Source: Trichlorobacter lovleyi SZ (lineage in GTDB: Bacteria; Desulfobacterota; Desulfuromonadia; Geobacterales; Pseudopelobacteraceae). Taken from it: a DNA stretch of 32,000 nt. This document shows positions 721 to 15,499 of this stretch, piece by piece. Position 1 is the stretch's first letter. Each line of letters opens with the position of its first letter. The stretch is taken from assembly GCF_000020385.1 (NCBI RefSeq), contig NC_010814.1, positions 1,080,001 to 1,112,000 on the forward strand. The letters are read 5' to 3'. The position numbers and the translations under genes are program-made. The notes beneath the pieces are model-generated. The model saw nothing but the letters and a program-made list of their open reading frames with translations, was not told the DNA's origin and did not search any database.

Positions 721-2706
721 CTACAGCTTGAAGCGTCCCACCAGACCTTCCAGATCTTTCGCCAGGCCGGACAGTTCTGAGGCTGCACCGGCGGTTTGAT
801 GGGCGCCGTTGGCGGTTTGTTGGACCACATCGGTGATCTGGTGGATGTTGGTGGATATCTCGCCGGTGACGGCGGTCTGCTCTTCTGCAGCCGTAGCAAT
901 CTGATGCACCTGCAGGGTGACTTCATTGATCCCTTCCAGGATCTGCTGCAGGGCATCACCGGATCGGCGTGAACTGTCCATCCCTTTCTCAACCTCTACA
1001 ACTCCCTGCTCCATTGAGGTCACAGCGCCACCGGTTTCCTGCTGGATCGCCTTGATCATCTCACCGATCTCGCGGGTGGCGCGGGTTGTCCGTTCTGCCA
1101 GGGCCCGTACTTCGTCGGCAACCACGGCAAAGCCGCGCCCCATCTCGCCGGCCCGGGCCGCCTCAATGGCGGCATTCAGGGCCAGCAGGTTGGTCTGGTC
1201 GGCAATATCCTCAATCGTTCCGACAATGGCCCCGATCTGGTCAGAGCGGGCCCCCAGTGCCTCAACCGTACGGGCCGATTCACGCACCTTCTCTGCAATG
1301 GTCTGCATACCTGAGATGGTTTCCTGTACCACAGAGGCACCACCATGGGCCATTTCACTGGCACGGTTGGCGATGTCGGACGCCAGGGTGCAATTGCGGG
1401 AGATGTCGTTGGAGGTGGCTGACATCTCTTCACTGGCTGTGGCAACCGTGGCTGACTGGCAGGCCACTTCCTCAGCAGCAGTCGCGATCTGTTCGGCAGT
1501 GCTGTGCAGCTGGTTGGATGCCGTAGCGACCTGGACCGTTGTGGTGGTGGCCTGGGAGATGATGGAGTGGATATTCTCAACAAAGCGGTTAAACCAGTGG
1601 CTTACTTCGCCAAACTCATCCTTGCGGTTGGCGTCCAGACGCCGGGTCAGGTCTCCCTCGCCCTGGGCTATATCCTGTAGCATCTCTACCAGCTTGCGCA
1701 ACGGTCCGGTAATACTGCCGACAATCAGCAGGCTGAGCAGCAGGGTCAGGACAGCCATTGTCAGTGATATGGCAATACTTAAAATCAGCGCCAGGCGGGC
1801 TGTGCCTGCCTGGTCGGATGCCTGTTGCAGGATTCCTTTTGCGATCCCGTCTTCGATCTCTTTCATCTGATCAATTTTAGCGGTAATGGCGCTAAACCAG
1901 GTTTCCGGCGTGATTTCAAAGCTGCCGGCCATCCCCTTTGCAAGCACGGCGTTGCGTAACTCATCCGCCTTTTTGAATGATTCAGACTGCGCCTTTTCAT
2001 CATAGGTTGTGACTGCGGCGCGTGACCCGAACTTGCGGAATCCTTCCATAAAGCTTTTTTGTGCAGAAAGAATACCGAAGGTGCGCTGGTAGGTCTCGTC
2101 ACTAAACGCATTGCCGGCAATGACGGCGTTCAGTGTGGCACGCTCTTTACCCATCTCCTCCTTGACCTTTGAAAAGGCAAAATAGGCGATGGCGGAGCGC
2201 ATCAGTGTCGGCTCCTTGCTGCTGCGTCCCACTGCTGCAACCACATCCAGGTAGGAGTAGTTAATGGCGGTATAAAACCCGAATGACTCCTTGCCTTCAA
2301 TTGTCAGTGCATCAACCTTGTTGCGGATATCAGAGAGTTTTTCCTGTTGTTTTGCTGCGGCATCAAGGGCCTGTCTGACGATTGTTGCCGCATCAGGAGT
2401 GGCAGCGATGAATGCTGCCAACTGCTTGAACTGCTCATCGCAAAGCCCACGCTGTTTAGCCAGTTCTGATCTGAATTTTTCGCCTTTTGCATTAATAAAG
2501 CCGGAAGAAAGCCCCCGTTCTTTCTGCAGTTCATGTACCAGTGCACCGGTGCGTACCGAGAGTCCGATCAGTTGCTCTGTCTGTCTGATGTCCTGCAGGG
2601 CTGCATACTTGTCAAGAACCTCGCGACCTGAAAAAAAGAGCAGTCCGAGAACCGGTAGCAAAAGCAGAAGTAACAGTTTGATGCGGATGCTGAGGTTCTT
2701 GAGCAT
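721..2706 (-). CDS. Methyl-accepting chemotaxis protein with a periplasmic NIT (nitrate/nitrite-sensing) domain
   Basis: ATG at 2706 is preceded by GGAGGAG; the longer ORF to 2787 is unlikely to be used. Order is TM1, a periplasmic region with the NIT-type motif [15 protein letters not shown] and a second KERATLN half, TM2, HAMP, then a conserved MCP signalling domain ([15 protein letters not shown]). Confidence 0.85.
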
Positions 2707-2780
2707 GGGGCTCCTCCGGGGCATTCTTGGGAAATGGATGCGTATCGGTGATTGTATACAATGATTCCGGCACCTATTCC

Positions 2781-2794
2781 TTGACATAAGTCAA
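2781..2794. promoter_or_regulatory. CRP/FNR-family box TTGACATAAGTCAA upstream of the NIT-MCP gene
   Basis: Perfect 5-4-5 palindrome. Its centre is 81.5 nt upstream of the MCP ATG. A minus-strand TACAAT -10 hexamer (2751-2756) sits at class II spacing. Confidence 0.6.
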
Positions 2795-2800
2795 ATTACA

Positions 2801-2838
2801 GCCATAACGGACTGCCGATACCGGCAGCCCGCTATGGC
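2801..2838 (-). terminator. Long hairpin downstream of nrfA (probable terminator)
   Basis: 17-bp stem with an ATAC loop. On the minus-strand RNA its two imperfections are G-U wobbles; on the plus-strand RNA they are A-C mismatches. A partial U run (UGUAAUUU) follows. Confidence 0.5.
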
Positions 2839-2859
2839 TATGCGGGGTGATGCTGTTGC

Positions 2860-4308
2860 TTACTTCTGCGGCCCGTAGGGGTCTTTCAACTCCTGCTCGG
2901 GCTTGAACATCAGCTTCTTGGCGCCACGGTTGTTGGTGTACTTGGACAGTTCAAGATCAATCTTGACCGGAACATCCACCCCGGCCTTGGTCAGAGCCTG
3001 ACGCAACAGACCATCGGCCTTGCCGGCGTACATGGTGGCATCACCCAGTATCCGCATCGCCTCGGTCGGGTTGTGGAAGCCGATGGAGTTTTCTGCGCCA
3101 AAGAACAGGTTACGGTAGAACCCTTCTTCATAGTAGAACTTGGCCTGGTCGTACATCTTCTGGTCGATCTGCTTGCCGGCGGCCTGCTGCTTGTGGGTCA
3201 TTTCAAACAGCTTGGCAACGGTGGCCAGGGCATAACCGGAGCGGATGTACTGGGAGGCAGCACGATCCTGAATCGTAATGACCTGGTTTTTCAACCATTC
3301 AGAAGACTCGCTGTGGCACTGTTTACAACCCTTGAAGTCGTTTTTGAGCGGGCTCATGATTCGGTGGTCTGAGATTTTCTTGCTGCCCACCTTGGTGTAC
3401 GGCATATGGCAGTCTGCACAGGAAACACCGGCCATCCAGTGTACGCTCTGGTTAGAGTACATCTCAAACTCGGGGTGGCGGATGTAGGCCATCTTGAAGC
3501 CGGTGACGGCCTGGGTCCATTCACCATAGGACTTGTCGCTGCGCATTTTCTTGATGATGTTCTCAATGCTGATCTTGCCCCACTTGCTCTCATCCCATGG
3601 GAAGAAAACGTCCTGCGACTTCATGTTGGCATCTTTGGGGATGGTGTAGGTCACGTGGCACTGGGCGCATACCAGACTGCGCTTGTCCTGATTGGTAAGC
3701 TTGGTCTGGTCAACTCCCATTTTGTCCAGAGCTTTTACAAGGGTAAAGCCTCGTGAAATTTTCAGACCCATATCCTTGTTGTTGTGGCAGTCGATACAGG
3801 CCACACCCATTTCCTGATGCTCTTTTGGGATCTGATTGACCGCATCGGCATATGATTGTGAGAAGTAGGTGACACCCTGCTTCTGAGCCAGTTGCGGTGC
3901 ATAGGGGGTTTTGCAGGTCAGACAGGCGCCACCACCCTTCAGGCGGGAAGGATCAATCTCCTTCTGATCCTTCATCATATAGACGTGGCCGCGTGGCTCG
4001 TTGTACTCAATACCAAAACCCCAGCCGTTGAACAGCAAGGCGATGAAGGGGTATTCAGACAGCTTGTCATAGACCTTGCCGCCGTCGTTGCCTTTTTTGT
4101 ACTTGCTTTTGCCTTCCGGGGTGGGCAGGGCAGTGTCTTTCCAGGTCTGGTATTCTTCAGGGTAATTCTTGCCCCAGACAGCCGGGTCAATCGTTCCGTC
4201 CGGAATCTCGGCAATCTTGGCCTGCTCGGCCTTGGGCGGGGCACAGGCGGTGATTGCGGCCCCGCACAGGGCGGCTGCCACAAGTGGTACCAACAGTTTG
4301 CTTCTCAT
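2860..4308 (-). CDS. nrfA: Pentahaem cytochrome c nitrite reductase NrfA (ammonia-forming)
   Basis: ATG at 4308 is preceded by GAGGAGGAA. It has the active-site CXXCK motif (CLTCK) plus four CXXCH motifs (CIDCH, CAQCH, CADCH, CKQCH). It also has the catalytic-Arg block EPRGH and the distal-His block RHPEFE. An N-terminal signal peptide is present. Confidence 0.93.
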   Translation of the reverse strand: MRSKLLVPLVAAALCGAAITACAPPKAEQAKIAEIPDGTIDPAVWGKNYPEEYQTWKDTALPTPEGKSKYKKGNDGGKVYDKLSEYPFIALLFNGWGFGIEYNEPRGHVYMMKDQKEIDPSRLKGGGACLTCKTPYAPQLAQKQGVTYFSQSYADAVNQIPKEHQEMGVACIDCHNNKDMGLKISRGFTLVKALDKMGVDQTKLTNQDKRSLVCAQCHVTYTIPKDANMKSQDVFFPWDESKWGKISIENIIKKMRSDKSYGEWTQAVTGFKMAYIRHPEFEMYSNQSVHWMAGVSCADCHMPYTKVGSKKISDHRIMSPLKNDFKGCKQCHSESSEWLKNQVITIQDRAASQYIRSGYALATVAKLFEMTHKQQAAGKQIDQKMYDQAKFYYEEGFYRNLFFGAENSIGFHNPTEAMRILGDATMYAGKADGLLRQALTKAGVDVPVKIDLELSKYTNNRGAKKLMFKPEQELKDPYGPQK

Positions 4309-4321
4309 AGGTGATTCCTCC

Positions 4322-4807
4322 TCAGGGGTTTGTTTGTAGTAACGGGTTGGTTTGCAGTGCACCGGTACCGGTATGGGTTACCCGGCGGTGGCAGCTCCAG
4401 CAGTTGCGTGACGTATCCATCTGCGATACCAGCGTTTCGTGGCATCTGATGCAGTTGGCCTTGACCACCTTGGCACCATGTTCAGACAGCGTGATCTTCT
4501 CCGGGACCTTGCCGGAGTAGAAGAACAATACGTCCTTCATACCGTCTATGGATTTCCAGATGTAGTGGCTGGCCAGGTTGTCGTTGGGCAGATGGCAGTC
4601 GACACATTTGAAGCGGCGATGGGCACCGGCATGCATGAAGGCGGTGTGCTGTGCTTCCATGACATGGCAGCTCGCACAGAAATCCGGTGATTCAGACTTG
4701 GCCAGCAGATGCGGCGGCCCCAGTGTCAGATACAGCCCCAACAGCGCACAACAGACTACTGCAATCAGCAGCGCCTGTTTCTGTGTGTAGCTCAGATTCT
4801 TCAGCAT
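4322..4807 (-). CDS. nrfH: Tetrahaem membrane quinol dehydrogenase NrfH (NapC/NirT family)
   Basis: ATG at 4807. It has one N-terminal TM helix and four CXXCH motifs (CASCH, CVDCH, CIRCH, CWSCH). The first is the NrfH-typical CXXCHxM (CASCHVM). It ends 13 nt upstream of nrfA. Confidence 0.88.
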   Translation of the reverse strand: MLKNLSYTQKQALLIAVVCCALLGLYLTLGPPHLLAKSESPDFCASCHVMEAQHTAFMHAGAHRRFKCVDCHLPNDNLASHYIWKSIDGMKDVLFFYSGKVPEKITLSEHGAKVVKANCIRCHETLVSQMDTSRNCWSCHRRVTHTGTGALQTNPLLQTNP

Positions 4808-4840
4808 CCCTTCACCCCCCTTCTGTCGTGGAATCAGGTA

Positions 4841-4879
4841 CAAAAACGCCGCCGGCAGTCTGCTGGACCACCGGCGGCG
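4841..4879 (-). terminator. Intercistronic terminator-like hairpin between hao and nrfH
   Basis: On the minus strand, CGCCGCCGG, a 15-nt loop and CCGGCGGCG form a perfect 9-bp GC stem, followed by UUUUUG. Confidence 0.5.
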
Positions 4880-4892
4880 CTGGTATCACCTG

Positions 4893-6149
4893 CTACTTCT
4901 TGCCGGCTTTTTTCTTCATGTCCTCCGCCATTTCACGGATCTCGGTCAGATCCTTCTTCATCTTGGCGTAACCATACCAGGTGGTGTAGTCAGGGTTCAT
5001 ATGGAACGCCCCCTGGAAGGTCTTCATGCGGTGATCCATGAACATCTCGTACAGGGTCTGTTCGATCTTGGTGTCAACATCGTAGAAGGTCAGCAGATCC
5101 GGGTAGGCAAACGGCTGATCTGCCTTCTTCTTGATGATTCCCTGCTGATACAGGTCGCCTACGATACTGATCGCTTCACTGAACAGTTTGTCTGCCTCTT
5201 TGCCCATCTGGTCAGCATTCTTGAAGTTTTCCTTCACAAAGTTGGGGGAGTGGCACTGCTGGCAGATCGCCACGTACTTGCCCCGCTCCTTATCAAACTC
5301 TTCCTTGGTCAGGCGGGCCACTTTACCTGCCTTGACCACATCCAGACGGCCGGTGGGCTTGCCAGCGGGATCAAGTACACCCATGCCTTTCAAAATAGTG
5401 GCGCGATAGCCCATCCACTCGGCATCGGCCTCTGGCAGGCGAACAGCCAGGAAGCCCCATGCTGACATTACGCGGTGGTTACCGTTGGGCATATGGCAGG
5501 TCTGGCACTTGGGTGCGCGGTTCTTTGCTCCGGGGTTGATGGCGCGGCTGGTCAGGTAGGCGGTTCCATGCTTGGAACCGGACCACATCTCCCACTGGGG
5601 ATGGTCAAACCCCATGTGGCAGGTCTGGCAGGCTTCAGGCTCGTTGGCTTCGGCCTTGGAGAAGGCGTGGCGGGTATGGCAGTTCTGGCAGTCCATGCCG
5701 TACTTGTAGTATTTGCGGGCCTCGGTCTCACGGCCTTTGGCATCAACCAATCCCAATGTGTGGCAGCCGCCGCAGCCTTTCTGGCCGGCCATGAACGCCT
5801 TGGGTTGATGGGGGGAGCGGGGCATTGCATCCAGAGCAACCTGACCAAGCACATGCTTGCCGTCCATATACTGGTTGGCCTGGTCCGGATGGCACTGCTT
5901 GCAGGTGGCGATGGTGGGGAGCTGTGCCTTGGCCACATCCTTCTCGCTGGTGTGATAGGTGCCGTGACAAGCCTCACAGGTCAGGCTTTTAGACATCTTG
6001 CCCCGGTTAAAGTCTTTGACCATCTCCGGCGAGATCTTGGCGTGGCAGGTCTCACAGTTGGACGGCTTGGCCAGTGCCAGTGCCGGCATCAGTGCCAGAC
6101 AGGCAACCATACAGATCAGCATGCTGCTAAACCGTTTCAATGCGCGCAT
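4893..6149 (-). CDS. hao: Octahaem cytochrome c of the hydroxylamine oxidoreductase (HAO) family, short epsilon-Hao-like form
   Basis: ATG at 6149 is preceded by AGGAGG, and a Sec signal peptide (ALALA/KP) is present. It has eight CXXCH motifs. The block CQNCHTRHAFSKAEANEPEACQTCHMGFDHPQWEMWSGSKHG closely follows the conserved HAO-family core as I remember it from Nitrosomonas HAO. It has no C-terminal membrane anchor. Confidence 0.75.
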   Translation of the reverse strand: MRALKRFSSMLICMVACLALMPALALAKPSNCETCHAKISPEMVKDFNRGKMSKSLTCEACHGTYHTSEKDVAKAQLPTIATCKQCHPDQANQYMDGKHVLGQVALDAMPRSPHQPKAFMAGQKGCGGCHTLGLVDAKGRETEARKYYKYGMDCQNCHTRHAFSKAEANEPEACQTCHMGFDHPQWEMWSGSKHGTAYLTSRAINPGAKNRAPKCQTCHMPNGNHRVMSAWGFLAVRLPEADAEWMGYRATILKGMGVLDPAGKPTGRLDVVKAGKVARLTKEEFDKERGKYVAICQQCHSPNFVKENFKNADQMGKEADKLFSEAISIVGDLYQQGIIKKKADQPFAYPDLLTFYDVDTKIEQTLYEMFMDHRMKTFQGAFHMNPDYTTWYGYAKMKKDLTEIREMAEDMKKKAGKK

Positions 6150-6226
6150 CTTCGTTCCTCCTTCAGGATGTGAGTGCTATCCAGCCAGATGCTGGTATCT
6201 ATACAAGTAGCAACTATGCAACAAGT

Positions 6227-6240
6227 TTGATGAAAGTCAA
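6227..6240. promoter_or_regulatory. CRP/FNR-family box TTGATGAAAGTCAA upstream of hao-nrfHA
   Basis: It matches TTGAC-N4-GTCAA at 9 of 10 positions, and TTTGA/TCAAA is a perfect palindrome. The centre is 84.5 nt from the hao ATG. A minus-strand TATAGA -10 hexamer (6198-6203) gives about 42 nt from centre to predicted TSS. Confidence 0.55.
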
Positions 6241-6335
6241 ATTTAGCAAAATAAAGTGGTAAATTAACGTTTACATGGACTTGTGAGATGTATTGATGCT
6301 TGACATGCTCTGGCTTTAGGCCTAGTTATGTAAAT

Positions 6336-6947
6336 ATGAAATCGCAAAATGTGCTCGAAAAAAAGGTAACACACGTAAGGCAAGCTGAGATTGTGCAGGC
6401 CGCCTTGAGTGTTATCGGCAGACTGGGTGTCAGTGGGCTAACCATCCATGAGGTGGCGCTGTCAGCCGGTATGAGTGAGGCCAACATCTACCGCCATTTC
6501 CGCAACAAGCAGGAGGTGGTCAAGGCGTTGGTAGAGTTCATCGGCGGCCAGGTCACCAGTCGGGCGGCTCAACTGGCCGGTTCAAGTGGCAAGCCGCTGG
6601 ACAAGCTGGAAAAGGTGATCCTGGCCCACACCGAGATGATTGCCAGAAATCCCGGTATACCAAGGCTTTTGTTCTCTGATGGCGGGATTGCCACCGGCGG
6701 CAGGATTGCCCAGATCATGTCCAGCCGGATAGAGAGCTTGCTGGATACCCTTGCAGGTCTGCTTGAGGCGGCTGCTACTGAAGGTGCGGTGCGTGAGGGG
6801 ATCGCTTCCCGCGAGACCGCCGTTACCATTTTGGGGATGATCCAGTTTAGCGTGCTGCGTTGGATCGGCAATCAAACCGAAGGCAAGCTGGTGGATGAAG
6901 TGGCGCTGTTGTGGGGTAATTTCAGGCGGCTTTTGGAGCGTCAGTAA
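6336..6947 (+). CDS. TetR/AcrR-family transcriptional repressor
   Basis: ATG at 6336. The N-terminal TetR HTH reads IVQAALSVIGRLGVSGLTIHEVALSAGMSEANIYRHFRNK. It lies immediately upstream of the efflux genes. Confidence 0.88.
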   Translation: MKSQNVLEKKVTHVRQAEIVQAALSVIGRLGVSGLTIHEVALSAGMSEANIYRHFRNKQEVVKALVEFIGGQVTSRAAQLAGSSGKPLDKLEKVILAHTEMIARNPGIPRLLFSDGGIATGGRIAQIMSSRIESLLDTLAGLLEAAATEGAVREGIASRETAVTILGMIQFSVLRWIGNQTEGKLVDEVALLWGNFRRLLERQ

Positions 6948-6968
6948 AGGGTGCAAATTTTTTTGCGC

Positions 6969-6994
6969 ACAATGTGAATATATATTTACATTGT
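6969..6994. promoter_or_regulatory. Candidate TetR operator, a 26-bp palindrome
   Basis: ACAATGTGAATAT/ATATTTACATTGT matches at 12 of 13 positions per arm. It ends 12 nt upstream of the adaptor gene ATG and overlaps an AT-rich -10-like TATATT. Confidence 0.55.
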
Positions 6995-7005
6995 GGGGGG
7001 CGGCG

Positions 7006-8157
7006 ATGATCAGGTCAAAAATGCAGCGGCGTACGCTGGTCTTGTTTGCAGGGGTGGCACTTTTAGCACTGTTGTTGCTATTGGTCATGTTTCGTTCAGG
7101 TCCGCTGGCGCCGGTTGAGGTGACGGTTGTTTCGGTGTCGTCCCAGGTGATCAGGCCGGCACTGTTCGGTATAGGCACGGTTGAGGCCCGTTACAGTTAT
7201 CAGGTTGGCCCGACAGCAGCAGGCAGAATCAAGCAGTTGCAGGTACAGGTGGGAGACCGGGTAAGAGCAGGACAACTGCTTGGAGAGATGGATCCGGTTG
7301 ACCTTAATGATCGTCTGCAGGCGCAACAGGCAGCCATCAAGCGTGCAGAGGCAAATGTGCAGGATGCCGAGGCCAGGCAGCGGTATGCGCATGCCCAGGC
7401 TAAACGGTATGGCGAACTGTTGCCGCTCAAAGCTACCAGCGAGGAAATAGTTTCAGCCAAGCGGCAGGAGTTGCAGACCGCTGATGCGGCGCTTGTCGCA
7501 GCCAGAGAAGAGCGTTCCCGGCTAACGTCTGAATATACGGGGCTGCGTTCCCAGCAGGGTAATCTGCGTCTGGCAGCCCCGGTTGCCGGGCTGGTAACGC
7601 TGCGCGGGGCTGAACCGGGCACCACCGTGGTTGCCGGACAAACCGTGATTGAGCTGATTGATCCGGCATCGGTTTGGATCAATACCCGTTTTGATCAGAT
7701 CGCGGCAAACGGGCTCAAGGCCGGTTTGCCGGCACGGATTGAGCTGCGTTCACGCAAGGGGACGCTGTTAAGCGGCACCATTGCCCGCATTGAACCAAAG
7801 GCCGACAGCATCACCGAAGAGGTCCTTGCCAAGGTGTTATTTGCACGTGTGCCAGAAAATCTACCTCCATTGGGCGAACTTGCAGAGGTAACGGTTGACC
7901 TCCCGCCGGCTGCCGCAACGCTGGTTCTGCCCAATGCGGCACTGCATCGTCTGGACAACCGGACCGGTGTCTGGCGTGTGAGTAAGGCCGGTGTTGAATT
8001 TGTTGCAGTAAAGCCTGGGGCAACTGATCTGGATGGTCGCGTACAGATTCTGGAAGGGCTTCAGAATGGGGATCAAGTGGTGCTGTACAGTGCCAAGGCT
8101 CTCACCCGTAAGAGTCGCATCAAGCTGGTTGAAAAGCTTTCGGTGGGCAGGCGATGA
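7006..8157 (+). CDS. Efflux membrane-fusion (periplasmic adaptor) protein, HlyD/DevB-like
   Basis: ATG at 7006. It has an N-terminal TM anchor, a coiled-coil hairpin region and a beta-barrel region typical of HlyD/MacA/DevB adaptors. It overlaps the next gene by 4 nt (ATGA). Confidence 0.85.
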   Translation: MIRSKMQRRTLVLFAGVALLALLLLLVMFRSGPLAPVEVTVVSVSSQVIRPALFGIGTVEARYSYQVGPTAAGRIKQLQVQVGDRVRAGQLLGEMDPVDLNDRLQAQQAAIKRAEANVQDAEARQRYAHAQAKRYGELLPLKATSEEIVSAKRQELQTADAALVAAREERSRLTSEYTGLRSQQGNLRLAAPVAGLVTLRGAEPGTTVVAGQTVIELIDPASVWINTRFDQIAANGLKAGLPARIELRSRKGTLLSGTIARIEPKADSITEEVLAKVLFARVPENLPPLGELAEVTVDLPPAAATLVLPNAALHRLDNRTGVWRVSKAGVEFVAVKPGATDLDGRVQILEGLQNGDQVVLYSAKALTRKSRIKLVEKLSVGRR

Positions 8158-9359
8158 TCAGTCTTGCCGGACGGGACATACTGCATGGTTGGGGTAAGTT
8201 TGTCTTTACCGGTGTCGGTCTGGGATTGTTGCTGGGGGTTACGTTGGTCATGGCCGGTGTCTACCGGGGGATGGTGGATGACGGCATGGCCCTGCTGGAC
8301 AACAGTGGTGCGGACCTGTGGGTGGTACAGCGCGATACGCTGGGCCCCTATGCCGAGTCTTCCAGCATCAATGATGATCTCTATCGCGGTATACGGGCCA
8401 TGCCGGGGGTTGCACAGGCCGCCAATATCACCTACCTGACCATGCAGGTACGAAAAGGACAGCAGGATGTGCGCTCTATGGTGGTGGGGGTGGCTTCCGG
8501 GCAGGTCGGGGCTGTTCCCGGATGGCCGACCTATCTGACGGCAGGTCGTCAGATGACACGGGGCCATTACGAGGCGGTGGCTGACCTGGCCACCGGTTTC
8601 AAAATCGGCGATCAGCTGGATATCCGGCGTAACCGCTACACTGTGGTGGGGCTGACCCGCCGCATGGTTTCATCAAGCGGTGATCCCATGGTCTTTATCC
8701 CGCTCAAGGATGCCCAGGAGGCCCAGTTCTTGAAGGATAACGATGCGATCTGGCAGGGCAGGCGGCGCACTGAAGCCAATCCAACCTTCAACCGTCCCGG
8801 TGTGCCCGGCCTGCTTAATGCGGTGCAGGCATCGCAGAGCAGCAATCCGTATGTCAATGCCGTACTGGTGACGATCAAAAACGGCCACGATCCTGCTGAG
8901 GTTGCCGAAGCAATCCGTCGCTGGAAGCGGCTGACCGTGTACAGCAGGACGCAGATGGAAGAGATTCTGGTGGGTAAGCTGATTGCCACCTCGGCCCGGC
9001 AGATCGGCATGTTTCTGGTGATCCTGGCCCTGGTCAGCGCCACCATTGTTGCCTTCATCATCTACACCCTGACCATGGATAAAATCAGGGAGATCGCCGT
9101 CTTGAAGCTGATCGGCACCCGCAATCGTACCATTGCCGCCATGATCATGCAGCAGTCGCTGGCCCTGGGTATCATCGGTTTTGCGGTGGGCAAGATCAGC
9201 GCAACCTTTGCGGCACCCTACTTCCCCAAGTACGTGCTGTTGGTGCCGATTGATTCCCTGATTGGCTTTCTGGTGGTGCTGGTGATCTGTGCGCTTGCCA
9301 GTCTGGTGGCCATCCGGATGGCGTTGCAGGTTGATCCGGCAGAAGCGATAGGGGGATAA
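8154..9359 (+). CDS. ABC transporter permease, FtsX/MacB/DevC-like
   Basis: 401 aa. Order is an N-terminal TM helix, a large periplasmic domain, then three C-terminal TM helices (FtsX-type topology). Confidence 0.85.
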   Translation: MISLAGRDILHGWGKFVFTGVGLGLLLGVTLVMAGVYRGMVDDGMALLDNSGADLWVVQRDTLGPYAESSSINDDLYRGIRAMPGVAQAANITYLTMQVRKGQQDVRSMVVGVASGQVGAVPGWPTYLTAGRQMTRGHYEAVADLATGFKIGDQLDIRRNRYTVVGLTRRMVSSSGDPMVFIPLKDAQEAQFLKDNDAIWQGRRRTEANPTFNRPGVPGLLNAVQASQSSNPYVNAVLVTIKNGHDPAEVAEAIRRWKRLTVYSRTQMEEILVGKLIATSARQIGMFLVILALVSATIVAFIIYTLTMDKIREIAVLKLIGTRNRTIAAMIMQQSLALGIIGFAVGKISATFAAPYFPKYVLLVPIDSLIGFLVVLVICALASLVAIRMALQVDPAEAIGG

Positions 9360-9363
9360 CACG

Positions 9364-10071
9364 GTGGCAGGTACCGGTATTCGTATTGAAGGACTGAGGA
9401 AACGCTACGGCAGTGGCGACACGGCGGTTGATGCCTTGCAGGGGGTGGAACTGCAGGTGGCGCCGGGTGAGGTGATCGGGCTGGTGGGGCCATCCGGTTC
9501 CGGCAAGAGCACCCTGCTGAAATGTCTGGGGGCGGTGATCGACCCGACTGCAGGACGGATCGTGCTGGGGGACGAGGTGATCTATGACAACGGCTGGCAG
9601 GTTCGGGATCTGCGTGCCCTTCGTCGCGACCGGATAGGCTTTGTCTTTCAGGCACCCTACCTGATCCCGTTTCTGGATGTGACCGATAATGTAGCCCTGT
9701 TGCCGATGCTGGCCGGTGTGCCGAATCAGGAGGCACGCAAGCGGGCCAGGGAGCTACTGGCCGCCCTGGAGGTGGAACACCGCGCCAAGGCCATGCCTGC
9801 ACAGCTTTCCGGCGGTGAACAGCAGCGAGTAGCCATTGCCCGTGGTCTGATCAACCGTCCCCCGGTTGTTCTGGCAGATGAGCCGACTGCCCCGCTGGAC
9901 AGTCAGCGGGCGCTGGGGGTGATCCGTATTCTCAATGATATGGCACAGCAGTATCAGACAGCGGTTATCGTGGTAACTCACGATGAAAAGATCATCCCTA
10001 CCTTCAAGCGGATCTACCATATCCGGGATGGCGTTACCCATGAAGAGGAGGGCGAGGGGCGGGTAATCTAA
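9364..10071 (+). CDS. ABC transporter ATP-binding protein (DevA/MacB-NBD-like)
   Basis: GTG start. It has Walker A (GPSGSGKST), the ABC signature (LSGGEQQR) and Walker B (VVLADEPT). Confidence 0.92.
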
Positions 10072-10228
10072 GGAAATATGGTTACGACAAACGACTTTAT
10101 CGGGTAACGAGGCGACAACATGACAAAGCGATGTCTGGTGCAAGGGTAAACAAGAAGATGCAGCTTTTTCAATTGTCTCGTTATTACAAATGATATTAGC
10201 GCTGACTGCTTATCTCACCATCTCGATT

Positions 10229-10642
10229 TCAGCCGAAGCGGATACGGTCCAGTTCCACCATGCGGGGATAGAGGACTGATTCCTCAGTGATAATCCGGTT
10301 ACCCAGCAGAGAGAAGATCCTGCCGATATCGCGGGCAAACACTACGCTCTGCTCCGGCGCTGGGTAGCGTTCGAAAAAGCGCTCCGCATCGGTGGCGATC
10401 TCCTGCATTTCGTTCTGGAAGCGATCCAGCAGAATCTGCAGATTCACGTCGTCGCGAGCCGCTTCTGCAAGGCGTGGATACAGATCTCGATCTTCATGCT
10501 GGAGATGGGCCTTTAAATTGTTACGCAGACGCTGTAACTCGGCAAACCCCTCCGCAGACACCACACCGGCCTGTTTGATGGCCGCGACCTGATTCTTCAA
10601 GGCTTGATGTTCGCGCTTGAGCGCGGTTATCAGCACCGACAT
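10229..10642 (-). CDS. Hemerythrin-like domain protein with a possibly degenerate metal site
   Basis: 137 aa and all-helical. It has an internal repeat, AHLQHEDRDLYPRL and RIITEESVLYPRM, resembling HxxxE...(F/Y)P hemerythrin half-motifs. Only 3 His are present in total. Confidence 0.5.
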   Translation of the reverse strand: MSVLITALKREHQALKNQVAAIKQAGVVSAEGFAELQRLRNNLKAHLQHEDRDLYPRLAEAARDDVNLQILLDRFQNEMQEIATDAERFFERYPAPEQSVVFARDIGRIFSLLGNRIITEESVLYPRMVELDRIRFG

Positions 10643-10743
10643 ACGTGTCTCCTTTGCCCGCTTTTACAGCATTGTTCCTATGTACCTGCCGGATCGATTC
10701 GTGACGGTTTTGTGATAATGCCATGCCTGCAATGCATATTTCA

Positions 10744-10757
10744 TTGACTCAGGTCAA
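10744..10757. promoter_or_regulatory. CRP/FNR-family box TTGACTCAGGTCAA between the divergent hemerythrin-like and NapH-like genes
   Basis: Perfect 5-4-5 palindrome. On the plus side, TATGTT (10780-10785), AGGAGG (10801-10806) and GTG 10814 fit a class II promoter. On the minus side, CATTAT (10715-10720) sits at the same spacing. Confidence 0.6.
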
Positions 10758-10813
10758 GGTCGTGCAATCGGTACTCCGGTATGTTGCGAGGAAAAAGCGA
10801 AGGAGGCATCAAC

Positions 10814-11818
10814 GTGTTACGCATATCAGCCGGGAACATTACCCGTGTCCGCCTGTTGGTGCAGTGGCTGTTTCTGTTCTGGATCATCGGCATCGGCATC
10901 CGCTTTGGCTTGTTTATAGCTGCAGTTGAACAGGGTAATCCGCAGCCGTTCTTTGGCCGGCCAGCCGGTGTTGAGGGCTTTCTGCCGATCGGGGCATTGA
11001 CCAGCCTGAAGCACTGGTTGGCCAGCGGACAGATTCACCCGGTACATCCGGCAGCACTGGTAATCTTTCTGGCAGTTCTGCTGATGAGTCTGCTGGCCAA
11101 GAAGTCATTCTGTTCCTGGATCTGCCCGGTGGGTACGCTGTCCGAGGTTGTGTATAAACTCGGGGTACGATTGCTGGGGCGTAATTTTAAGGTCTGGAGG
11201 CCGCTTGATCTGCTGCTGCAGGGGATCAAGTATCTGGTGCTGTTCTTCTTCGTGAAGATAATTCTGCTTGATATGCCTGCCTTTGCCGTTGCCGCCTTTC
11301 TGGATACCCCTTATTGGGCAGCCAGTGATGCCAAGATGCTGCATTTTTTTACCCAGATTTCTGCCACAACCGTTACGGTGCTGACGGTACTGACACTGCT
11401 GTCTCTGGTCTATCGTAATGTCTGGTGCCGCTACCTGTGTCCCTACGGTGCCCTGCTGGGTGTCCTGAGCCTGCTGAGTCCGTTCAAGATCCGGCGTAAC
11501 CCGCACACCTGTACTGATTGTCGCCAGTGCAGTCAGGCCTGCCCGGCAGGCATCAGCGTGCACAGCACAACCAAGGTTGTCTCGCCTGAATGCACCGGCT
11601 GCCTGACCTGCGTAGCTGCCTGTCCGCATCAGGAAGTGCTGGTCATGCAGCCATCGTTCTGGAAACGTCCACTGCCGGTCTGGCTTTTTCCGGCAGTTGC
11701 CCTGAGCCTGTTTATGGTCTCAATCGGGGTTGGTATGGCAAGCGGTCACTGGCAGACGGTGTTGACCTACGACGATTACCGCCAACTGTTGCCGATGCTG
11801 CCCTATCTGAGTCATTGA
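10814..11818 (+). CDS. Membrane-bound polyferredoxin of the NapH/MauN/NosR-C family (orphan NapH-like)
   Basis: It has several TM helices and two CxxxCP motifs (CSWICP, CRYLCP). Two C-terminal 4Fe-4S motifs follow (CTDCRQCSQACP, CTGCLTCVAACP). I prefer GTG 10814 with its AGGAGG RBS; the in-frame ATG at 10781 would fall inside the predicted -10 element. Confidence 0.8.
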   Translation: MLRISAGNITRVRLLVQWLFLFWIIGIGIRFGLFIAAVEQGNPQPFFGRPAGVEGFLPIGALTSLKHWLASGQIHPVHPAALVIFLAVLLMSLLAKKSFCSWICPVGTLSEVVYKLGVRLLGRNFKVWRPLDLLLQGIKYLVLFFFVKIILLDMPAFAVAAFLDTPYWAASDAKMLHFFTQISATTVTVLTVLTLLSLVYRNVWCRYLCPYGALLGVLSLLSPFKIRRNPHTCTDCRQCSQACPAGISVHSTTKVVSPECTGCLTCVAACPHQEVLVMQPSFWKRPLPVWLFPAVALSLFMVSIGVGMASGHWQTVLTYDDYRQLLPMLPYLSH

Positions 11819-11911
11819 GGATGGTTGACGCGGGCGACGGTTGGACGGCGGTCAGGATGGTACCCTGCAGAAAATTCAAAATTACTGCAGCACTGCTGCG
11901 CGTTCAATTGT

Positions 11912-12193
11912 TTACATGCCTTGCGTCTGAGGAGCGCCGTGACATGTACGACAGGCTTCTTCAGTCGCTTTGCGTTTAAGCAGGCTGTCTTTGTCTTTGG
12001 GTTGCCCTTTGCCCATCAGTTTTGCTCCCACTTTGTGGCAGCCAAAACATCCCTGTCCCTGTAGTGCCTTATGCATCTTGACCATAGCCGGGTTCTTGCT
12101 GTGGCAGACGGTACATTCAAAGGCTGCCACAGGCGGTGCAAGCAGCAGCATCAGTACCAGCAACATGCTTCTTGTGGTTTGTCTGTTTTTCAT
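11912..12193 (-). CDS. Small periplasmic trihaem cytochrome c
   Basis: ATG at 12193. It has a signal peptide (MKNRQTTRSMLLVLMLLLAPPVAA) and three CXXCH motifs (CTVCH, CFGCH, CRTCH) in about 70 mature residues. No Shine-Dalgarno sequence precedes the ATG. Confidence 0.8.
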   Translation of the reverse strand: MKNRQTTRSMLLVLMLLLAPPVAAFECTVCHSKNPAMVKMHKALQGQGCFGCHKVGAKLMGKGQPKDKDSLLKRKATEEACRTCHGAPQTQGM

Positions 12194-12227
12194 GCCGTTT
12201 GCATAGCACAACAGGAAGGGAATGGTG

Positions 12228-12241
12228 TTGACCGAAGTCAA
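12228..12241. promoter_or_regulatory. CRP/FNR-family box TTGACCGAAGTCAA upstream of the trihaem cytochrome gene
   Basis: Perfect 5-4-5 palindrome whose centre is exactly 41.5 nt from the A of the ATG. A minus-strand extended -10 (TGcTATGCA, 12200-12208) ends 6 nt before the ATG. Confidence 0.6.
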
Positions 12242-12287
12242 GTTTAGGTGTTGTTGCTATGTCTGGTTAACTGGTGATTGATAGCTG

Positions 12288-12340
12288 GTTTCCGAATCGG
12301 AAACAAACAATTTGTTATCCGGAGTTTCCGGATGGAAACT
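12288..12340. repeat. Cluster of three short palindromes
   Basis: They are GTTTCCGA-A-TCGGAAAC (12288-12304), AACAA-T-TTGTT (12306-12316) and AGTTTCC-GGAT-GGAAACT (12323-12340). The two outer ones share a TTTCC...GGAAA core. Confidence 0.6.
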
Positions 12341-12368
12341 AGTTAAGGCGGTGGGAAGTCCCTGCAGG

Positions 12369-12403
12369 TAAAAAGGCCGTCGGCAGTATGCCGGCGGCCT
12401 TTT
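12369..12403 (-). terminator. Rho-independent terminator after the bcp / ferritin-like operon (possibly bidirectional)
   Basis: GGCCGTCGGCA and TGCCGGCGGCC form an 11-bp stem with one non-Watson-Crick position. A-runs and T-runs flank it on both sides. It starts 22 nt downstream of the stop at 12426. Confidence 0.6.
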
Positions 12404-12888: not shown

Positions 12889-13362
12889 TTATTCACAGTG
12901 AAAATCTTTAATATACTCAAGAACCTGGGCCGGGTGTTGTTCGGCCTTGGCTACTTTGGTCCAATGTTTTCTGATGATACCGTCCGCACAGATCAATACG
13001 GTTGAGCGGATTACTCCGGAAACCTGTTTGCCGTACATCATCTTCTCGCCAAAGGCGTGATAAGCCTTCATCACACGGGCATCAGGATCAGACAGCAGCA
13101 CCATGTTCAGTTCATGATTATCAATGAAGCGCTGGTGTGAAGCCAGCGAGTCGCGGCTGATCCCCAGAATGACAAAGCCCAGTTTTTCAAATTCCGGCTT
13201 CAGGTCACGGAAGCCGACGGCCTCCTTGGTGCAGCCTGACGTGTTGTCCCTGGGATAGAAAAACAGCAACAGGCGCCGCCCCGCATAGTCCTGCAGGCGG
13301 TGGCGTCTGCCGTCACTCCCCTCCAGATCAAAGTCAGGGGCTTTATTGTCAATAAGGGTCAT
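12889..13362 (-). CDS. bcp: Thiol peroxidase / peroxiredoxin Bcp
   Basis: 157 aa. It has the PxxxTxxC peroxidatic motif (PRDNTSGC) and an AhpC/TSA fold pattern (FFYPRD...GISRDS). Confidence 0.9.
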   Translation of the reverse strand: MTLIDNKAPDFDLEGSDGRRHRLQDYAGRRLLLFFYPRDNTSGCTKEAVGFRDLKPEFEKLGFVILGISRDSLASHQRFIDNHELNMVLLSDPDARVMKAYHAFGEKMMYGKQVSGVIRSTVLICADGIIRKHWTKVAKAEQHPAQVLEYIKDFHCE

Positions 13363-13398
13363 GTCTGCTCCTTAAGGCTGAATACACAAGGTTGAATC

Positions 13399-13413
13399 TG
13401 TATACACTATACA
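13399..13413. promoter_or_regulatory. Fur/PerR-like AT-rich palindrome upstream of bcp
   Basis: TGTATAC-A-CTATACA has 7-1-7 geometry with 6 of 7 positions symmetric. Its centre is about 44 nt upstream of the bcp ATG. Confidence 0.35.
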
Positions 13414-13539
13414 TCAAAAAAGTCAACATTGGCTCGCAACTGCTCAAAGCTCATCAGAACCGGTGTTTGTTTCAGCCGGTTTGCCAAAGACAGGACTGGC
13501 CCGCCCGGCCAAGTTGTACGTGCAATTTTGAAGGAGTGA

Positions 13540-13557
13540 TGTTACTTTTATGTAACG
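13540..13557. promoter_or_regulatory. TGTTAC-N6-GTAACg inverted repeat just upstream of the sigma-54 activator gene
   Basis: TGTTAC TTTTAT GTAACG is symmetric at 11 of 12 positions. It has the same half-sites and spacing as the palindrome at 14977-14996. Confidence 0.4.
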
Positions 13558-13570
13558 AGGTGCCATTGCT

Positions 13571-14962
13571 ATGCAACAGCTGACAACAATCTACCGGGAT
13601 ATTCTGGAAAGTATGGCGGAAGGGATCATCTTTGCCGATGCTGATGATCGGCTGACCTTTATTAACCAGACTGCCGAGGAGATCAGGGGGATCAAGGCCG
13701 AAAATTTTATCGGCCGAACCATCTTCTCGGTGCATTCTCCCAACTCCGCCAAGCGTATCAAAGAGCTGTTGCAGAAGCTGCGTGATGGCTCCATCAAGCA
13801 GGCCCGGCGGGTAATTGAGGTGAAAGGGCGCTATTTTGAGAACAGTTACTATCCCGTGAGCAGTCCTGACGGGGGATATCTGGGAACATTGCTGATCAGC
13901 CGTGATGTTACTGAACGGCAGCAGTTGCAGCATGAAAACCAGTCGCTCAAACAGCGGATGGCCTGCGGCAGTTTCGGCGGGTTTGTCAGTATCAGCTCAT
14001 CCATGCTGCCGGTATTTCAGACCATTGGCGCTGTGGCGGGACTGGAGTCAACGGTGCTGATCACCGGTGAGAGCGGTACCGGTAAAGAGCTGGTGGCTGC
14101 GGCCATACACCGTAACAGCGCCCGCAATGAGCGGGCAATGGTAACGGTCAACTGTGCGGCGCTGCCGGAACATCTGGTGGAATCCGAACTGTTTGGTTAC
14201 CAGCGCGGTGCCTTTACCGGCGCAGTAGGCAACCACCGCGGTAAATTTGAACAGGCGGACAAAAGCACGATCTTTCTGGATGAGGTCGGAGACCTGCCGG
14301 CCAATGCCCAGGCCAAGCTGCTGCGGGTGCTGCAGGAGCGGACCGTCAGCCGGCTGGGATCTGAAAAGGATATCCGGGTGGATGTGCGGATTATTGCTGC
14401 AACCAATCGCAACCTGCAGCAGATGGTGGCGGATGGTCTGTTCAGGGAGGATCTCTATTACCGCCTGAATGTGATTTCATTGCCGGTGCCCCCGCTGCGG
14501 GAGCGGCGTGAGGATATCCTGCCCATGGCGGAGTTCTTTCTGAAAAGATTCAGTGAACGGATGGAACGTCCGCAGCTGGGGATTTGTGAGGCAACCCGGT
14601 CGGTGCTGCTTTCCTACGACTATCCCGGTAATGTGCGCGAGCTGGAACATGGGATTGAGCGTGCCGTTGCGCTCTGTCCCGGCTCGTGCATCTCTCCGGC
14701 AGACCTGCCTGAACAGTTTGTAGCGGCCCGCAGCTCCGGGGGGCCGGACTGGCAACACCCCCTGTCAGTACGGGCCGGAGATCAGTATCGTCCGGATGAT
14801 GCCGCTCCTGCCACCCTGGCCAATGCCCGTGAAGAATCGGAGCGTCGACTGATCCTTGACGCCCTGGTCAGGACCGGCGGCCGCAAGGCAGAGGCGGCAA
14901 AACTGCTGAATATCTCACGTAAAACCCTCTGGGAAAAATTGAAGCTGATTAACCAAACGTAA
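13571..14962 (+). CDS. Sigma-54-dependent transcriptional activator with an N-terminal PAS domain (PAS-AAA+-Fis HTH)
   Basis: It has Walker A (GESGTGKE), the sigma-54 contact loop GAFTGA and ESELFGY. The C-terminal Fis-type HTH reads [18 protein letters not shown]. There is no receiver domain. Confidence 0.92.
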
Positions 14963-14976
14963 CGTTTTTCAGTGCT

Positions 14977-14996
14977 ATGTTACCAAATGGTAACAT
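14977..14996. promoter_or_regulatory. Perfect 20-bp palindrome ATGTTACCAAATGGTAACAT (candidate enhancer/UAS)
   Basis: The 9-bp arms leave only a 2-nt centre and no U tract follows, so it is unlikely to be a terminator. It lies about 95 nt upstream of the TGGCAC element at 15081. Confidence 0.45.
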
Positions 14997-15080
14997 GAAT
15001 CCATCCTGTTCTCCCCTCTCTTGTTTTGTATCCTCAAAAAAAGTTAGCTAAACCAGGTTGTTGGCACTGCCCGGGAAAGT

Positions 15081-15096
15081 TGGCACAGCTCCTGTA
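15081..15096 (+). promoter_or_regulatory. Weak candidate sigma-54 -24/-12 promoter for the nap operon
   Basis: TGGCAC-AGCTC-CTGTA has a perfect -24 element and correct spacing. The -12 element reads TGT instead of TGC. Confidence 0.3.
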
Positions 15097-15229
15097 TACG
15101 CTGTCTGTACTGCAGGGGCATGGTGCGTATTTTTTGTGCATGGCCAGCTTGCGGATTTAACGTTCGGTGCTACCCTTGAATCAGCCAGAACTGGCGCAAA
15201 AATTGAGGGGCCGATAGGGTGAGGTGGGT

Positions 15230-15499
15230 ATGCCTGTTTCAGGTGTAGTACTGAGTTGCAGACCGGGAAAAGAGACCCTGGTCGCAGAACTGGCCAGGCT
15301 GGTGCCAGGCGTTGAGGTACACGGGGCACTGCCTGACGGGCAGGTCATTGCGGTGATTGAGGCTGCTTCGGTCCAGGCCGAGGTGGATATCGCCTCACAG
15401 CTTGAGCAGCTTGATGCGGTTATCAGTGTGCAGGTGGCGTACCATAACTTTGAAGATGTAACCCAAGAAGGAGGCGCAGATGGAACTGACGAGGCGTGA
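15230..15499 (+). CDS. napD: NapD chaperone for NapA maturation
   Basis: About 90 aa, with the NapD pattern VSGVVL...VPGVEVHG...GQVIAVIEA...ISVQVAYHNFED. An alternative GTG start is at 15224. It overlaps the napA start by 20 nt. Confidence 0.82.
   Translation: MPVSGVVLSCRPGKETLVAELARLVPGVEVHGALPDGQVIAVIEAASVQAEVDIASQLEQLDAVISVQVAYHNFEDVTQEGGADGTDEA

Follow-up and report, generated by a model that had tools for sequence, protein, structure and literature searches.

Four intergenic TTGAY-N4-GTCAA palindromes as putative class II sites of an HcpR/DNR-type regulon in Trichlorobacter lovleyi SZ

That CRP/FNR-type regulators activate nitrogen-oxide (N-oxide) genes from class II sites is textbook knowledge, and a motif of this kind was predicted in sister species of the organism studied here twenty years ago (2004-2005). 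The FNR-like HcpR motif ATTTGACCNNGGTCAAAT was derived for Desulfuromonas and Desulfotalea (Rodionov et al. 2004, PMC545781), and the profile 2 consensus wyTTGACnnnnGTCAArw was given for Desulfuromonas, Desulfotalea, Geobacter sulfurreducens and G. metallireducens (Rodionov et al. 2005, PMC1274295). The predicted HcpR targets in G. sulfurreducens include nrfHA with a COG0348 polyferredoxin (GSU3155), the cytochrome c GSU0105, and cytX-frdX; in G. metallireducens they include a TetR-family regulator, cytX2 upstream of nrfA-yccM, and also napC and nar (PMC1274295 Table S1), and hemerythrin-like genes are among the predicted HcpR targets as well (PMC1274295). In Desulfovibrio, HcpR1 and HcpR2 were described, by electrophoretic mobility shift assay and footprinting, as CRP/FNR regulators of hcp and nap that respond to nitric oxide (NO) (Cadby et al. 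2017, PMC5701242). Here we analyse a 32,000-nucleotide stretch of Trichlorobacter lovleyi SZ (contig NC_010814.1, positions 1,080,001 to 1,112,000), called the window below, in which four copies of the palindrome TTGAY-N4-GTCAA, the boxes, precede genes of ammonification and detoxification. T. lovleyi SZ serves in the laboratory as a model of how Geobacterales ammonify nitrate, and the window encodes its crystallised NrfA (PDB 6V0A). We estimate a probability of roughly 80% that the four boxes are class II sites for one dimeric HcpR/DNR-type activator of the CRP/FNR family encoded elsewhere in the SZ genome.

A pattern search of the window returned exactly four perfect sites, at the positions named in the initial annotation. 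Box 1, TTGACATAAGTCAA (2781..2794), lies upstream of a NIT chemoreceptor gene; box 2, TTGATGAAAGTCAA (6227..6240), lies upstream of hao-nrfH-nrfA and is divergent from a TetR gene; box 3, TTGACTCAGGTCAA (10744..10757), is common to divergent genes for a hemerythrin and a NapH-like protein; and box 4, TTGACCGAAGTCAA (12228..12241), lies upstream of a gene for a trihaem cytochrome c. The sites have the form expected for FNR-type members of the CRP/FNR family, a 5-bp TTGAY/RTCAA inverted repeat with a 4-bp spacer in four perfect copies, and they equal the HcpR profile 2 consensus, and the GTCAAgg flanks of boxes 1 and 3 also occur in the published sites. Of the eight half-sites, seven read TTGAC/GTCAA and one has the TTGAT/ATCAA form. 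Counted by strand there are seven hits; 100 shuffles that preserved dinucleotide composition averaged 0.17, and none of them reached seven. A Pfam-based gene map assigns 92.6% of the window to coding sequence and leaves 2368 bases (7.4%) non-coding; all four boxes fall within these 2368 bases, each upstream of a gene, an arrangement that random placement would produce with a probability of about 0.074^4 = 3e-5. A chance origin of the four palindromes is excluded. The earlier statement that a 9/10 match inside coding sequence occurs only at 22062 needs a minor correction, as two more are present at 22906 and 25705. No Rfam family matched anywhere in the window, the hairpin-rich spacer at 12242-12400 included.

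The class II spacing that had been claimed is also predicted here, from -10-like hexamers. At all five promoters such a hexamer (TAnnnN or CAnnnT) lies 22-23 nt downstream of the box, and there is no -35 element. Read from the sequence, the predicted -10 elements are TATACA for the chemoreceptor (2753..2758, minus strand, 22 nt from box 1, box centre at -41.5), TATAGA for hao (6198..6203, minus strand, 23 nt from box 2, centre at -42.5), CATTAT for the hemerythrin (10715..10720, minus strand, 23 nt from box 3), and TGcTATGCA, with the hexamer TATGCA, for the cytochrome c (12200..12205, minus strand, 22 nt from box 4). For the NapH-like gene the predicted -10 is TATGTT (10780..10785, plus strand, 22 nt from box 3), and it is kept in a relative (L095, see below). 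The box centres would therefore be at -41.5 or -42.5, and the predicted transcription starts are at about 2746 (minus strand), 6191 (minus), 10708 (minus), 10792 (plus) and 12193 (minus). When 26 non-redundant hao promoters are aligned by their boxes, the -10 score averages -1.3 at a gap of 22 and -0.9 at a gap of 23, with averages between roughly -4 and -6 for most other gaps; this peak lends statistical support to the predicted geometry, although the 26 sequences are phylogenetically non-independent. In the TetR direction at box 2 the best hexamer is only 19 nt away and the TetR gene carries a TTGACA-17-TAGTTA promoter of its own, and therefore box 2 is probably not an activator site for the TetR gene.

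The nitrate response of strain SZ agrees with a regulon organised around these boxes. The expression values come from RNA sequencing (RNA-seq) of nitrate- versus fumarate-grown cells (PMC11972089, Table S3), in which the list of up-regulated genes was used down to a log2 fold change (log2FC) of 1.09. Table S3 holds 133 nitrate-induced genes, among them hcp (Glov_0585 and Glov_2647), the hemerythrin Glov_2650, nar Glov_2651-2657 and Glov_0202-0223. The window spans locus tags Glov_1040 to about Glov_1066: seven of its proteins are identical to entries within ACD94764-ACD94779, and accession offsets equal locus-tag offsets wherever this is checkable against the published table (the MCP Glov_1041, the 4Fe-4S protein Glov_1050 and NapA, Glov_1056). 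All box-bearing units are listed as induced, with log2FC values of 5.6 for the NIT chemoreceptor (Glov_1041), 4.54 for NrfA (Glov_1042), 4.63 for NrfH (Glov_1043), 4.13 for the Hao-like cytochrome (Glov_1044), 5.3 for the hemerythrin (Glov_1049), 4.57 for the NapH-like protein (Glov_1050) and 2.4 for the cytochrome c (Glov_1051). The interleaved box-less genes Glov_1045-1048 (TetR and efflux) and Glov_1052-1054 (rubrerythrin, AhpC and a sigma-54 activator) do not occur in the up-regulated list down to its log2FC of 1.09. As far as this list extends, the boundaries of induction therefore coincide with the box-bearing promoters, and the range of 2.4 to 5.6 on nitrate favours the N-oxide regulon proposed initially.

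To compare the boxes among relatives we used 80 loci from a scan with the Hao-like protein (one genome per species) and 7 loci from a metagenome scan with the chemoreceptor, and further T. lovleyi-like contigs were added by look-ups with Hcp and MacB. The loci carry numbers beginning with L, and L001 is Geobacter sp. UBA6802. The window and L083 have TTGAC-TTAT-GTCAA as box 1; the box ends in -TTAT-ATCAA in L082 and L095, in -TTGT-GTCAA in L084 and in -GTGC-GTCAA in L092/93; the half-sites are kept and the spacer is free. At the same promoter, TGTATACAA is kept in L082, L083, L084 and L095, and in L083 both box 1 and TGTATACAA persist although the upstream flank is unrelated. Box 2 is kept in seven Desulfuromonadales loci (L001, L002, L003, L082, L084, L092 and L095), where it and a GTATAGA/GTATACA -10 have a fixed spacing at a column identity of about 61%; this -10 is found downstream of box 2 in L082, L084, L092, L095 and L002. 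For box 2 the comparison with L001 is uninformative (the spacer is 99% identical), and the footprint rests on L082, L084, L002 and L003. Box 3 reads TTGACTTAGGTCAA in L095 and TTGACCCAGGTCAT in L001, forming an island within diverged flanks. Box 4 is identical in L095, and L001 has TTGATATCCGTCAA between diverged flanks.

The association of the box with hao extends well beyond the close relatives of SZ. Of 75 loci from Geobacterales, Acidobacteriota and Thermodesulfobacteriota, 29 carry a perfect box no more than 400 nt before the hao-like gene, and in about two-thirds of these 29 a distance of 60-115 nt separates the box centre from the beginning of the protein match. The hao-like gene is often joined in operons with hcp, frdX or nrfHA. 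As expected for HcpR, the same box stands before hcp and/or frdX within the lineage: box 2 is followed by hao-hcp-nrfHA in L001, L092/93 and L095, where SZ has box-hao-nrfHA; L002 has box-hcp, L005-L007 have box-hcp-frdX-hao, and L010, L013 and L066 have box-frdX-hao. This evidence on hcp and frdX comes from the relatives; SZ itself has the hcp genes Glov_0585 and Glov_2647. Eleven distant loci have CRP/FNR-family open reading frames (ORFs) near a box-bearing hao, and in three of them (L054, L064 and L070) a box lies immediately upstream of the regulator gene itself. Nine of the hao-linked regulators, all from other phyla, have the helix P-E-(T/V)-x-S-R and lack the N-terminal Cys cluster of FNR. 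This helix combines the E--SR residues of FNR with a Pro at the position of CRP Arg180; the signature of profile 2 HcpR proteins is Ser or Pro replacing CRP Arg180 together with the E--SR recognition residues (Rodionov et al.). When two of the hao-linked regulators were searched, Pseudomonas aeruginosa DNR (PDB 3DKW) was the top match, or one of the top matches, among solved relatives. None of the hao-linked regulators reaches an NCBIfam equivalog cut-off.

Several side observations concern these loci. Perfect boxes about 60-170 nt before the hao match were seen in L039, L046-L052 and L057-L079, which include Acidobacteriota, Thermodesulfobacteriota, Geomonas and Thermosulfurimonas, and a DNR/HcpR-like regulator gene (helix P-E-T/V-x-S-R) is often only a few kb off. 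In L082, whose chemoreceptor is 99% identical to that of SZ, hao is missing and a 19-codon 5' remnant precedes nrfH (L082:4060-4400). Between SZ and L001, hao and its promoter are 98-99% identical and the neighbouring genes about 86-91%, which hints at a recent exchange; the cargo behind box 2 was compared using window positions 4844-6240, L082:4060-4400, L001:9139-12452, L092 and L095. Two boxes about 45 bp apart occur between a DUF1858-SBP gene and a PAS-only gene in L084 (20868-20926) and L095 (21201-21258). The corresponding spacer is about 8 kb past the left end of the window, and the SZ genes there, Glov_1034/1035, have log2FC values of 4.56 and 2.5 in the nitrate list; these genes add to the members of the regulon, and the two boxes possibly form a tandem-site promoter.

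Taken together, the data support placing the window in the predicted Desulfuromonadales HcpR-type regulon, which is now located in T. lovleyi SZ and is consistent with the transcriptome. The sites, their conservation, their placement relative to -10-like elements and the nitrate induction of exactly these units in SZ are shown by the data; which regulator acts, what signal it answers, that it activates and does not repress, and where transcription starts are inferred. In the mechanism we propose, the promoters would be sigma-70 promoters with a recognisable -10 and no -35, and the box would be centred about 41.5-42.5 bp upstream of the start, where the bound dimer would replace the -35 contact and recruit RNA polymerase in the class II manner. 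When N-oxides appear, with nitrate respiration giving nitrite and NO, the regulator would switch on five units together: the NIT chemoreceptor, hao-nrfH-nrfA, the hemerythrin, the NapH/YccM-like polyferredoxin and the trihaem cytochrome c, the last probably leaderless. The hemerythrin and NapH-like genes would be driven from one bidirectional box.

Some observations weigh against this mechanism. The motif alone cannot tell HcpR from DNR-, Anr- or FNR-type regulators. At single sites -10-like hexamers arise easily by chance, and the transcription starts are predictions. Induction by nitrate is no proof that the boxes are its cause, because in the same RNA-seq list the box-less nap-ONR operon (Glov_1055-1061; ONR, octahaem nitrite reductase) is induced as strongly, at log2FC 5.3-5.8. 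A CRP/FNR gene was found neither in the window nor in the 10-kb flanks of close relatives. Its absence from the window, stated in the initial annotation, is borne out by Pfam and by phmmer with approximate query sequences of E. coli FNR and CRP; the same approximate queries found no CRP/FNR ORF in L001-L004, L044, the Geomonas loci or L082-L084, and no such protein appears in the Pfam listings of L089-L095 or in the stretch beyond hcp of L002. Finally, the left half-site resembles a sigma-70 -35 element: in a promoter scan, TTGACT of box 2 and CATAGT are paired across 16 nt, and at box 4 of L001 the half-site TTGATA is 17 nt from a perfect TATAAT, which would suit a repressor or a factor-independent promoter.

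FNR, which prefers TTGAT-N4-ATCAA, is an oxygen sensor that uses an N-terminal Cys4 [4Fe-4S] cluster. An oxygen-sensing regulator of the FNR/Anr type, with such a cluster, might bind the boxes, in which case they would report anaerobiosis and not N-oxides. The 5-4-5 architecture and the -41.5 position do match the textbook E. coli FNR class II promoter, and one half-site in the window and several in the orthologues read TTGAT/ATCAA. However, seven of the eight half-sites in the window have the TTGAC/GTCAA form of HcpR profile 2, the hao-linked regulators found elsewhere are without the FNR Cys cluster, and for the two of them searched DNR was best or among the best solved relatives. The content of the regulon (hcp, frdX, nrfHA, hemerythrin and the DUF1858 protein) is typical of nitrosative stress, and the units are listed as induced in nitrate- versus fumarate-grown cells, both cultures being assumed anaerobic. 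We therefore regard an oxygen-sensing regulator as unlikely.

The resemblance to -35 elements leads to a different proposal, namely that the boxes are operators overlapping a TTGAC -35, bound by a repressor (a negatively acting CRP/FNR protein or the adjacent TetR), so that induction would be de-repression. The TTGACT-16-nt spacer-CATAGT arrangement at box 2 does score as a sigma-70-like promoter, TTGATA-17-TATAAT at box 4 of L001 fits as well, TAnnnT occurs 8 nt past the box in 6 of 26 hao promoters, and box 2 has a TetR gene next to it in the window and in L001, L082, L084, L092 and L095. Yet the hexamers at a gap of 8 are weak and come from only two lineages, whereas the signal at 22-23 is general. 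In the loci covered by a tblastn screen, TetR homologues at 50% coverage or more are confined to L001, L082 and L084, with L092/93 and L095 added by gene call, whereas box and hao together span three phyla and have CRP/FNR neighbours; nor is there a TetR gene beside boxes 1, 3 and 4. A better operator candidate for TetR is a separate conserved inverted repeat, GTAAA-N6-TTTAC at 6259-6274. Repression is thus quite improbable, and TetR as the protein that binds the boxes is rejected, as it accompanies box 2 only, and only in Trichlorobacter-like loci. The weakest proposal, that the palindromes are chance or compositional features such as symmetric -35 elements without a common regulator, has only the likeness of TTGAC to a -35 hexamer in its favour and is rejected, since none of the 100 shuffles reached the count, all four sites fall in the 7.4% of intergenic DNA, and both half-sites are kept while the spacers drift.

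The inverted repeat at 6259-6274, in full GTAAA-TTAACG-TTTAC, adjoins box 2 on the TetR side, and its core ATTTACC is invariant in the seven Desulfuromonadales loci; it is likely the operator for a TetR-family repressor of the HlyD-MacB-ABC efflux operon. The efflux cassette (TetR, HlyD, MacB and ABC) occupies 6336-10071. Its MacB-type permease shares 83-85% identity with betaproteobacterial proteins (Thiobacillus denitrificans, Thauera and Allopusillimonas), an identity unusually high for such distant phyla, which suggests horizontal transfer of the cassette among nitrate reducers.

The gene identities originally assigned beside the boxes are confirmed by Pfam and by counts of haem motifs. 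The chemoreceptor (Glov_1041, 721..2706, minus strand) has a NIT-HAMP-MCP architecture and matches ACD94764 exactly. The operon hao-nrfH-nrfA (Glov_1044-1042, 2860..6149, minus strand) encodes, on that strand, the HAO-family octahaem cytochrome (Glov_1044, 4893-6149), NrfH with four CxxCH motifs (Glov_1043, 4322-4843), and NrfA with four CxxCH and one CxxCK (Glov_1042, 2860-4308 or 4362), which matches PDB 6V0A over its full length. A strong terminator-like hairpin of 20 pairs (2798..2841, minus strand) follows nrfA, and its T-tail enters box 1; because this hairpin adjoins the box, the chemoreceptor gene is a transcription unit of its own. The hemerythrin-domain protein (Glov_1049, 10229..10642, minus strand) matches ACD94772 exactly, and the NapH/YccM-like membrane polyferredoxin (Glov_1050, 10814..11818, plus strand) is identified by Pfam Fer4_5 and matches ACD94773 exactly. 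Its start is most likely the GTG at 10814, since this codon is preceded by AGGAGG and the ATG at 10781 falls inside the predicted -10; a separate gene call also yields 334 aa. The trihaem cytochrome c (Glov_1051, 11912..12193, minus strand) has three CxxCH motifs. Its gene has no Shine-Dalgarno sequence, and the predicted transcription start falls on the A of the ATG at 12193, 41.5 nt from the centre of box 4; the mRNA is probably leaderless or nearly so. In L001 the TGCTA -10 block of the cytochrome c gene is kept and the only in-frame ATG is 8 nt after it (6-8 nt past the hexamer). A gene caller chose the second ATG (84 aa) in L089, an identical contig, and the first ATG (93 aa) in L095.

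The observation that the nap-ONR operon has no box, made in the initial annotation, holds: none with up to 2 mismatches was found upstream of napD/napA (14963-15479). The conclusion drawn from it, that nitrate and nitrite reduction are under two separate circuits, stands in part. The operon is box-less and adjoins the gene for a sigma-54 activator; the split is however not one of nitrate versus nitrite, because the last gene of the nap operon encodes an octahaem nitrite reductase. The activator gene, which precedes nap, encodes a PAS-containing protein. A second palindrome, TGTTAC-N6-GTAACA, occurs at 13540-13557 upstream of the activator gene (with 1 mismatch) and at 14978-14995 upstream of napD (perfect); at up to 2 mismatches there are 3 matches, against 0.45 expected. 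It may be the binding site of the activator and the basis of a separate control of nap-ONR. A separate circuit for nap is plausible since nap is box-less, a sigma-54 activator gene adjoins it, and the second palindrome is found before both. A search for sigma-54 -24/-12 promoters gave 27 matches where 25 were expected and was uninformative, and the best candidate near nap, TGGCACagctcCTGTA at 15081, was discarded as weak and without the conserved GC. A napD-like ORF of 91 aa (Glov_1055, 15224-15499) precedes napA, and therefore the leader of nap is 14963-15223 and not the whole 517-bp gap.

L001 lacks the sigma-54 activator and napDAGH, and its Fer4-ONR genes stand directly behind a box of their own, TTGACCAAAGTCAA (L001:985-1240, compared with window positions 13357-13575 and 19655). 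In SZ the nap island occupies the place of this box and ONR is box-less, which looks like a rewiring of the regulon by insertion or loss. Nearby, at 13395-13435 upstream of ahpC-rbr, a block CTGTATACACTATACA..AAAAAAGTCAACATT is kept between SZ and L001 and the rest of the spacer has diverged; the block holds a lone GTCAA half-site and no box, and may be a peroxide-stress operator of the PerR type.

All box units of the window except the NIT chemoreceptor and hao have a precedent among predicted HcpR targets, and neither of these two links is in the published HcpR target lists (PMC1274295). For the cytochrome c gene, the KEGG hit given for Glov_1051 is gsu:GSU0105 (PMC11972089 Table S3). The 2025 transcriptome paper describes a "regulated acclimation" to nitrate, and a term search of the paper and its supplements did not return a Crp-family regulator (PMC11972089). 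HcpR is unmentioned in a 2025 review of NrfA regulation, and a full-text literature search found no paper combining 'lovleyi' and 'HcpR'; one paper was returned in which HcpR and hydroxylamine oxidoreductase occur together. What this analysis adds is modest: two plausible regulon members (the NIT chemoreceptor and the HAO-family gene), a probably leaderless cytochrome, and a link between box and hao across phyla. Nevertheless, four conserved boxes tied to exactly the induced units provide a concrete and testable regulatory model. We suggest tentatively, and at somewhat less than even odds, that the HAO-family octahaem cytochrome is a core member of a DNR/HcpR-type, NO-responsive regulon across phyla, and that the regulator in T. 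lovleyi also switches on the NIT-domain chemoreceptor. We propose the cross-phylum role because a box at class II distance, often with a regulator gene alongside, is present in Geobacterales, Acidobacteriota and Thermodesulfobacteriota. If true, this would give HAO-family cytochromes a role in the detoxification of NO, hydroxylamine or nitrite, and nitrosative-stress sensing in T. lovleyi would be coupled to nitrate and nitrite taxis.

In E. coli, FNR class II promoters have a 5-4-5 inverted repeat centred at -41.5, lack a -35 element, and control nitrite reduction genes. The window resembles them in its 5-4-5 repeat, in the predicted centres at -41.5/-42.5, in the missing -35 and in the nitrite reduction genes, but seven of its eight half-sites have C/G at position 5, and the hao-linked regulators of other phyla have no N-terminal Cys cluster. 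The DNR/NnrR activators, such as P. aeruginosa DNR (PDB 3DKW), share with the window a TTGAT/C-N4-GTCAA box in front of genes of N-oxide respiration; their targets are however the denitrification genes nir, nor and nos, whereas those in the window belong to ammonification and detoxification. HcpR1 and HcpR2 of Desulfovibrio differ in using a CRP-like TGTGA-N6-TCACA box, and there nrfHA has no HcpR site, its control being attributed to NrfS-NrfR (PMC5701242). HcpR profile 2 agrees with the window in having the same consensus, the same combination of nrfHA and COG0348 polyferredoxin, small cytochrome c, TetR and hemerythrin-like genes, and hcp/frdX in the lineage. It differs in being a prediction from comparative genomics in other species, whose lists contain neither T. 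lovleyi nor the NIT chemoreceptor nor the HAO-family octahaem gene, and in that a box precedes nitrate reductase genes in G. metallireducens (napC and nar) but not the nap genes of the window.

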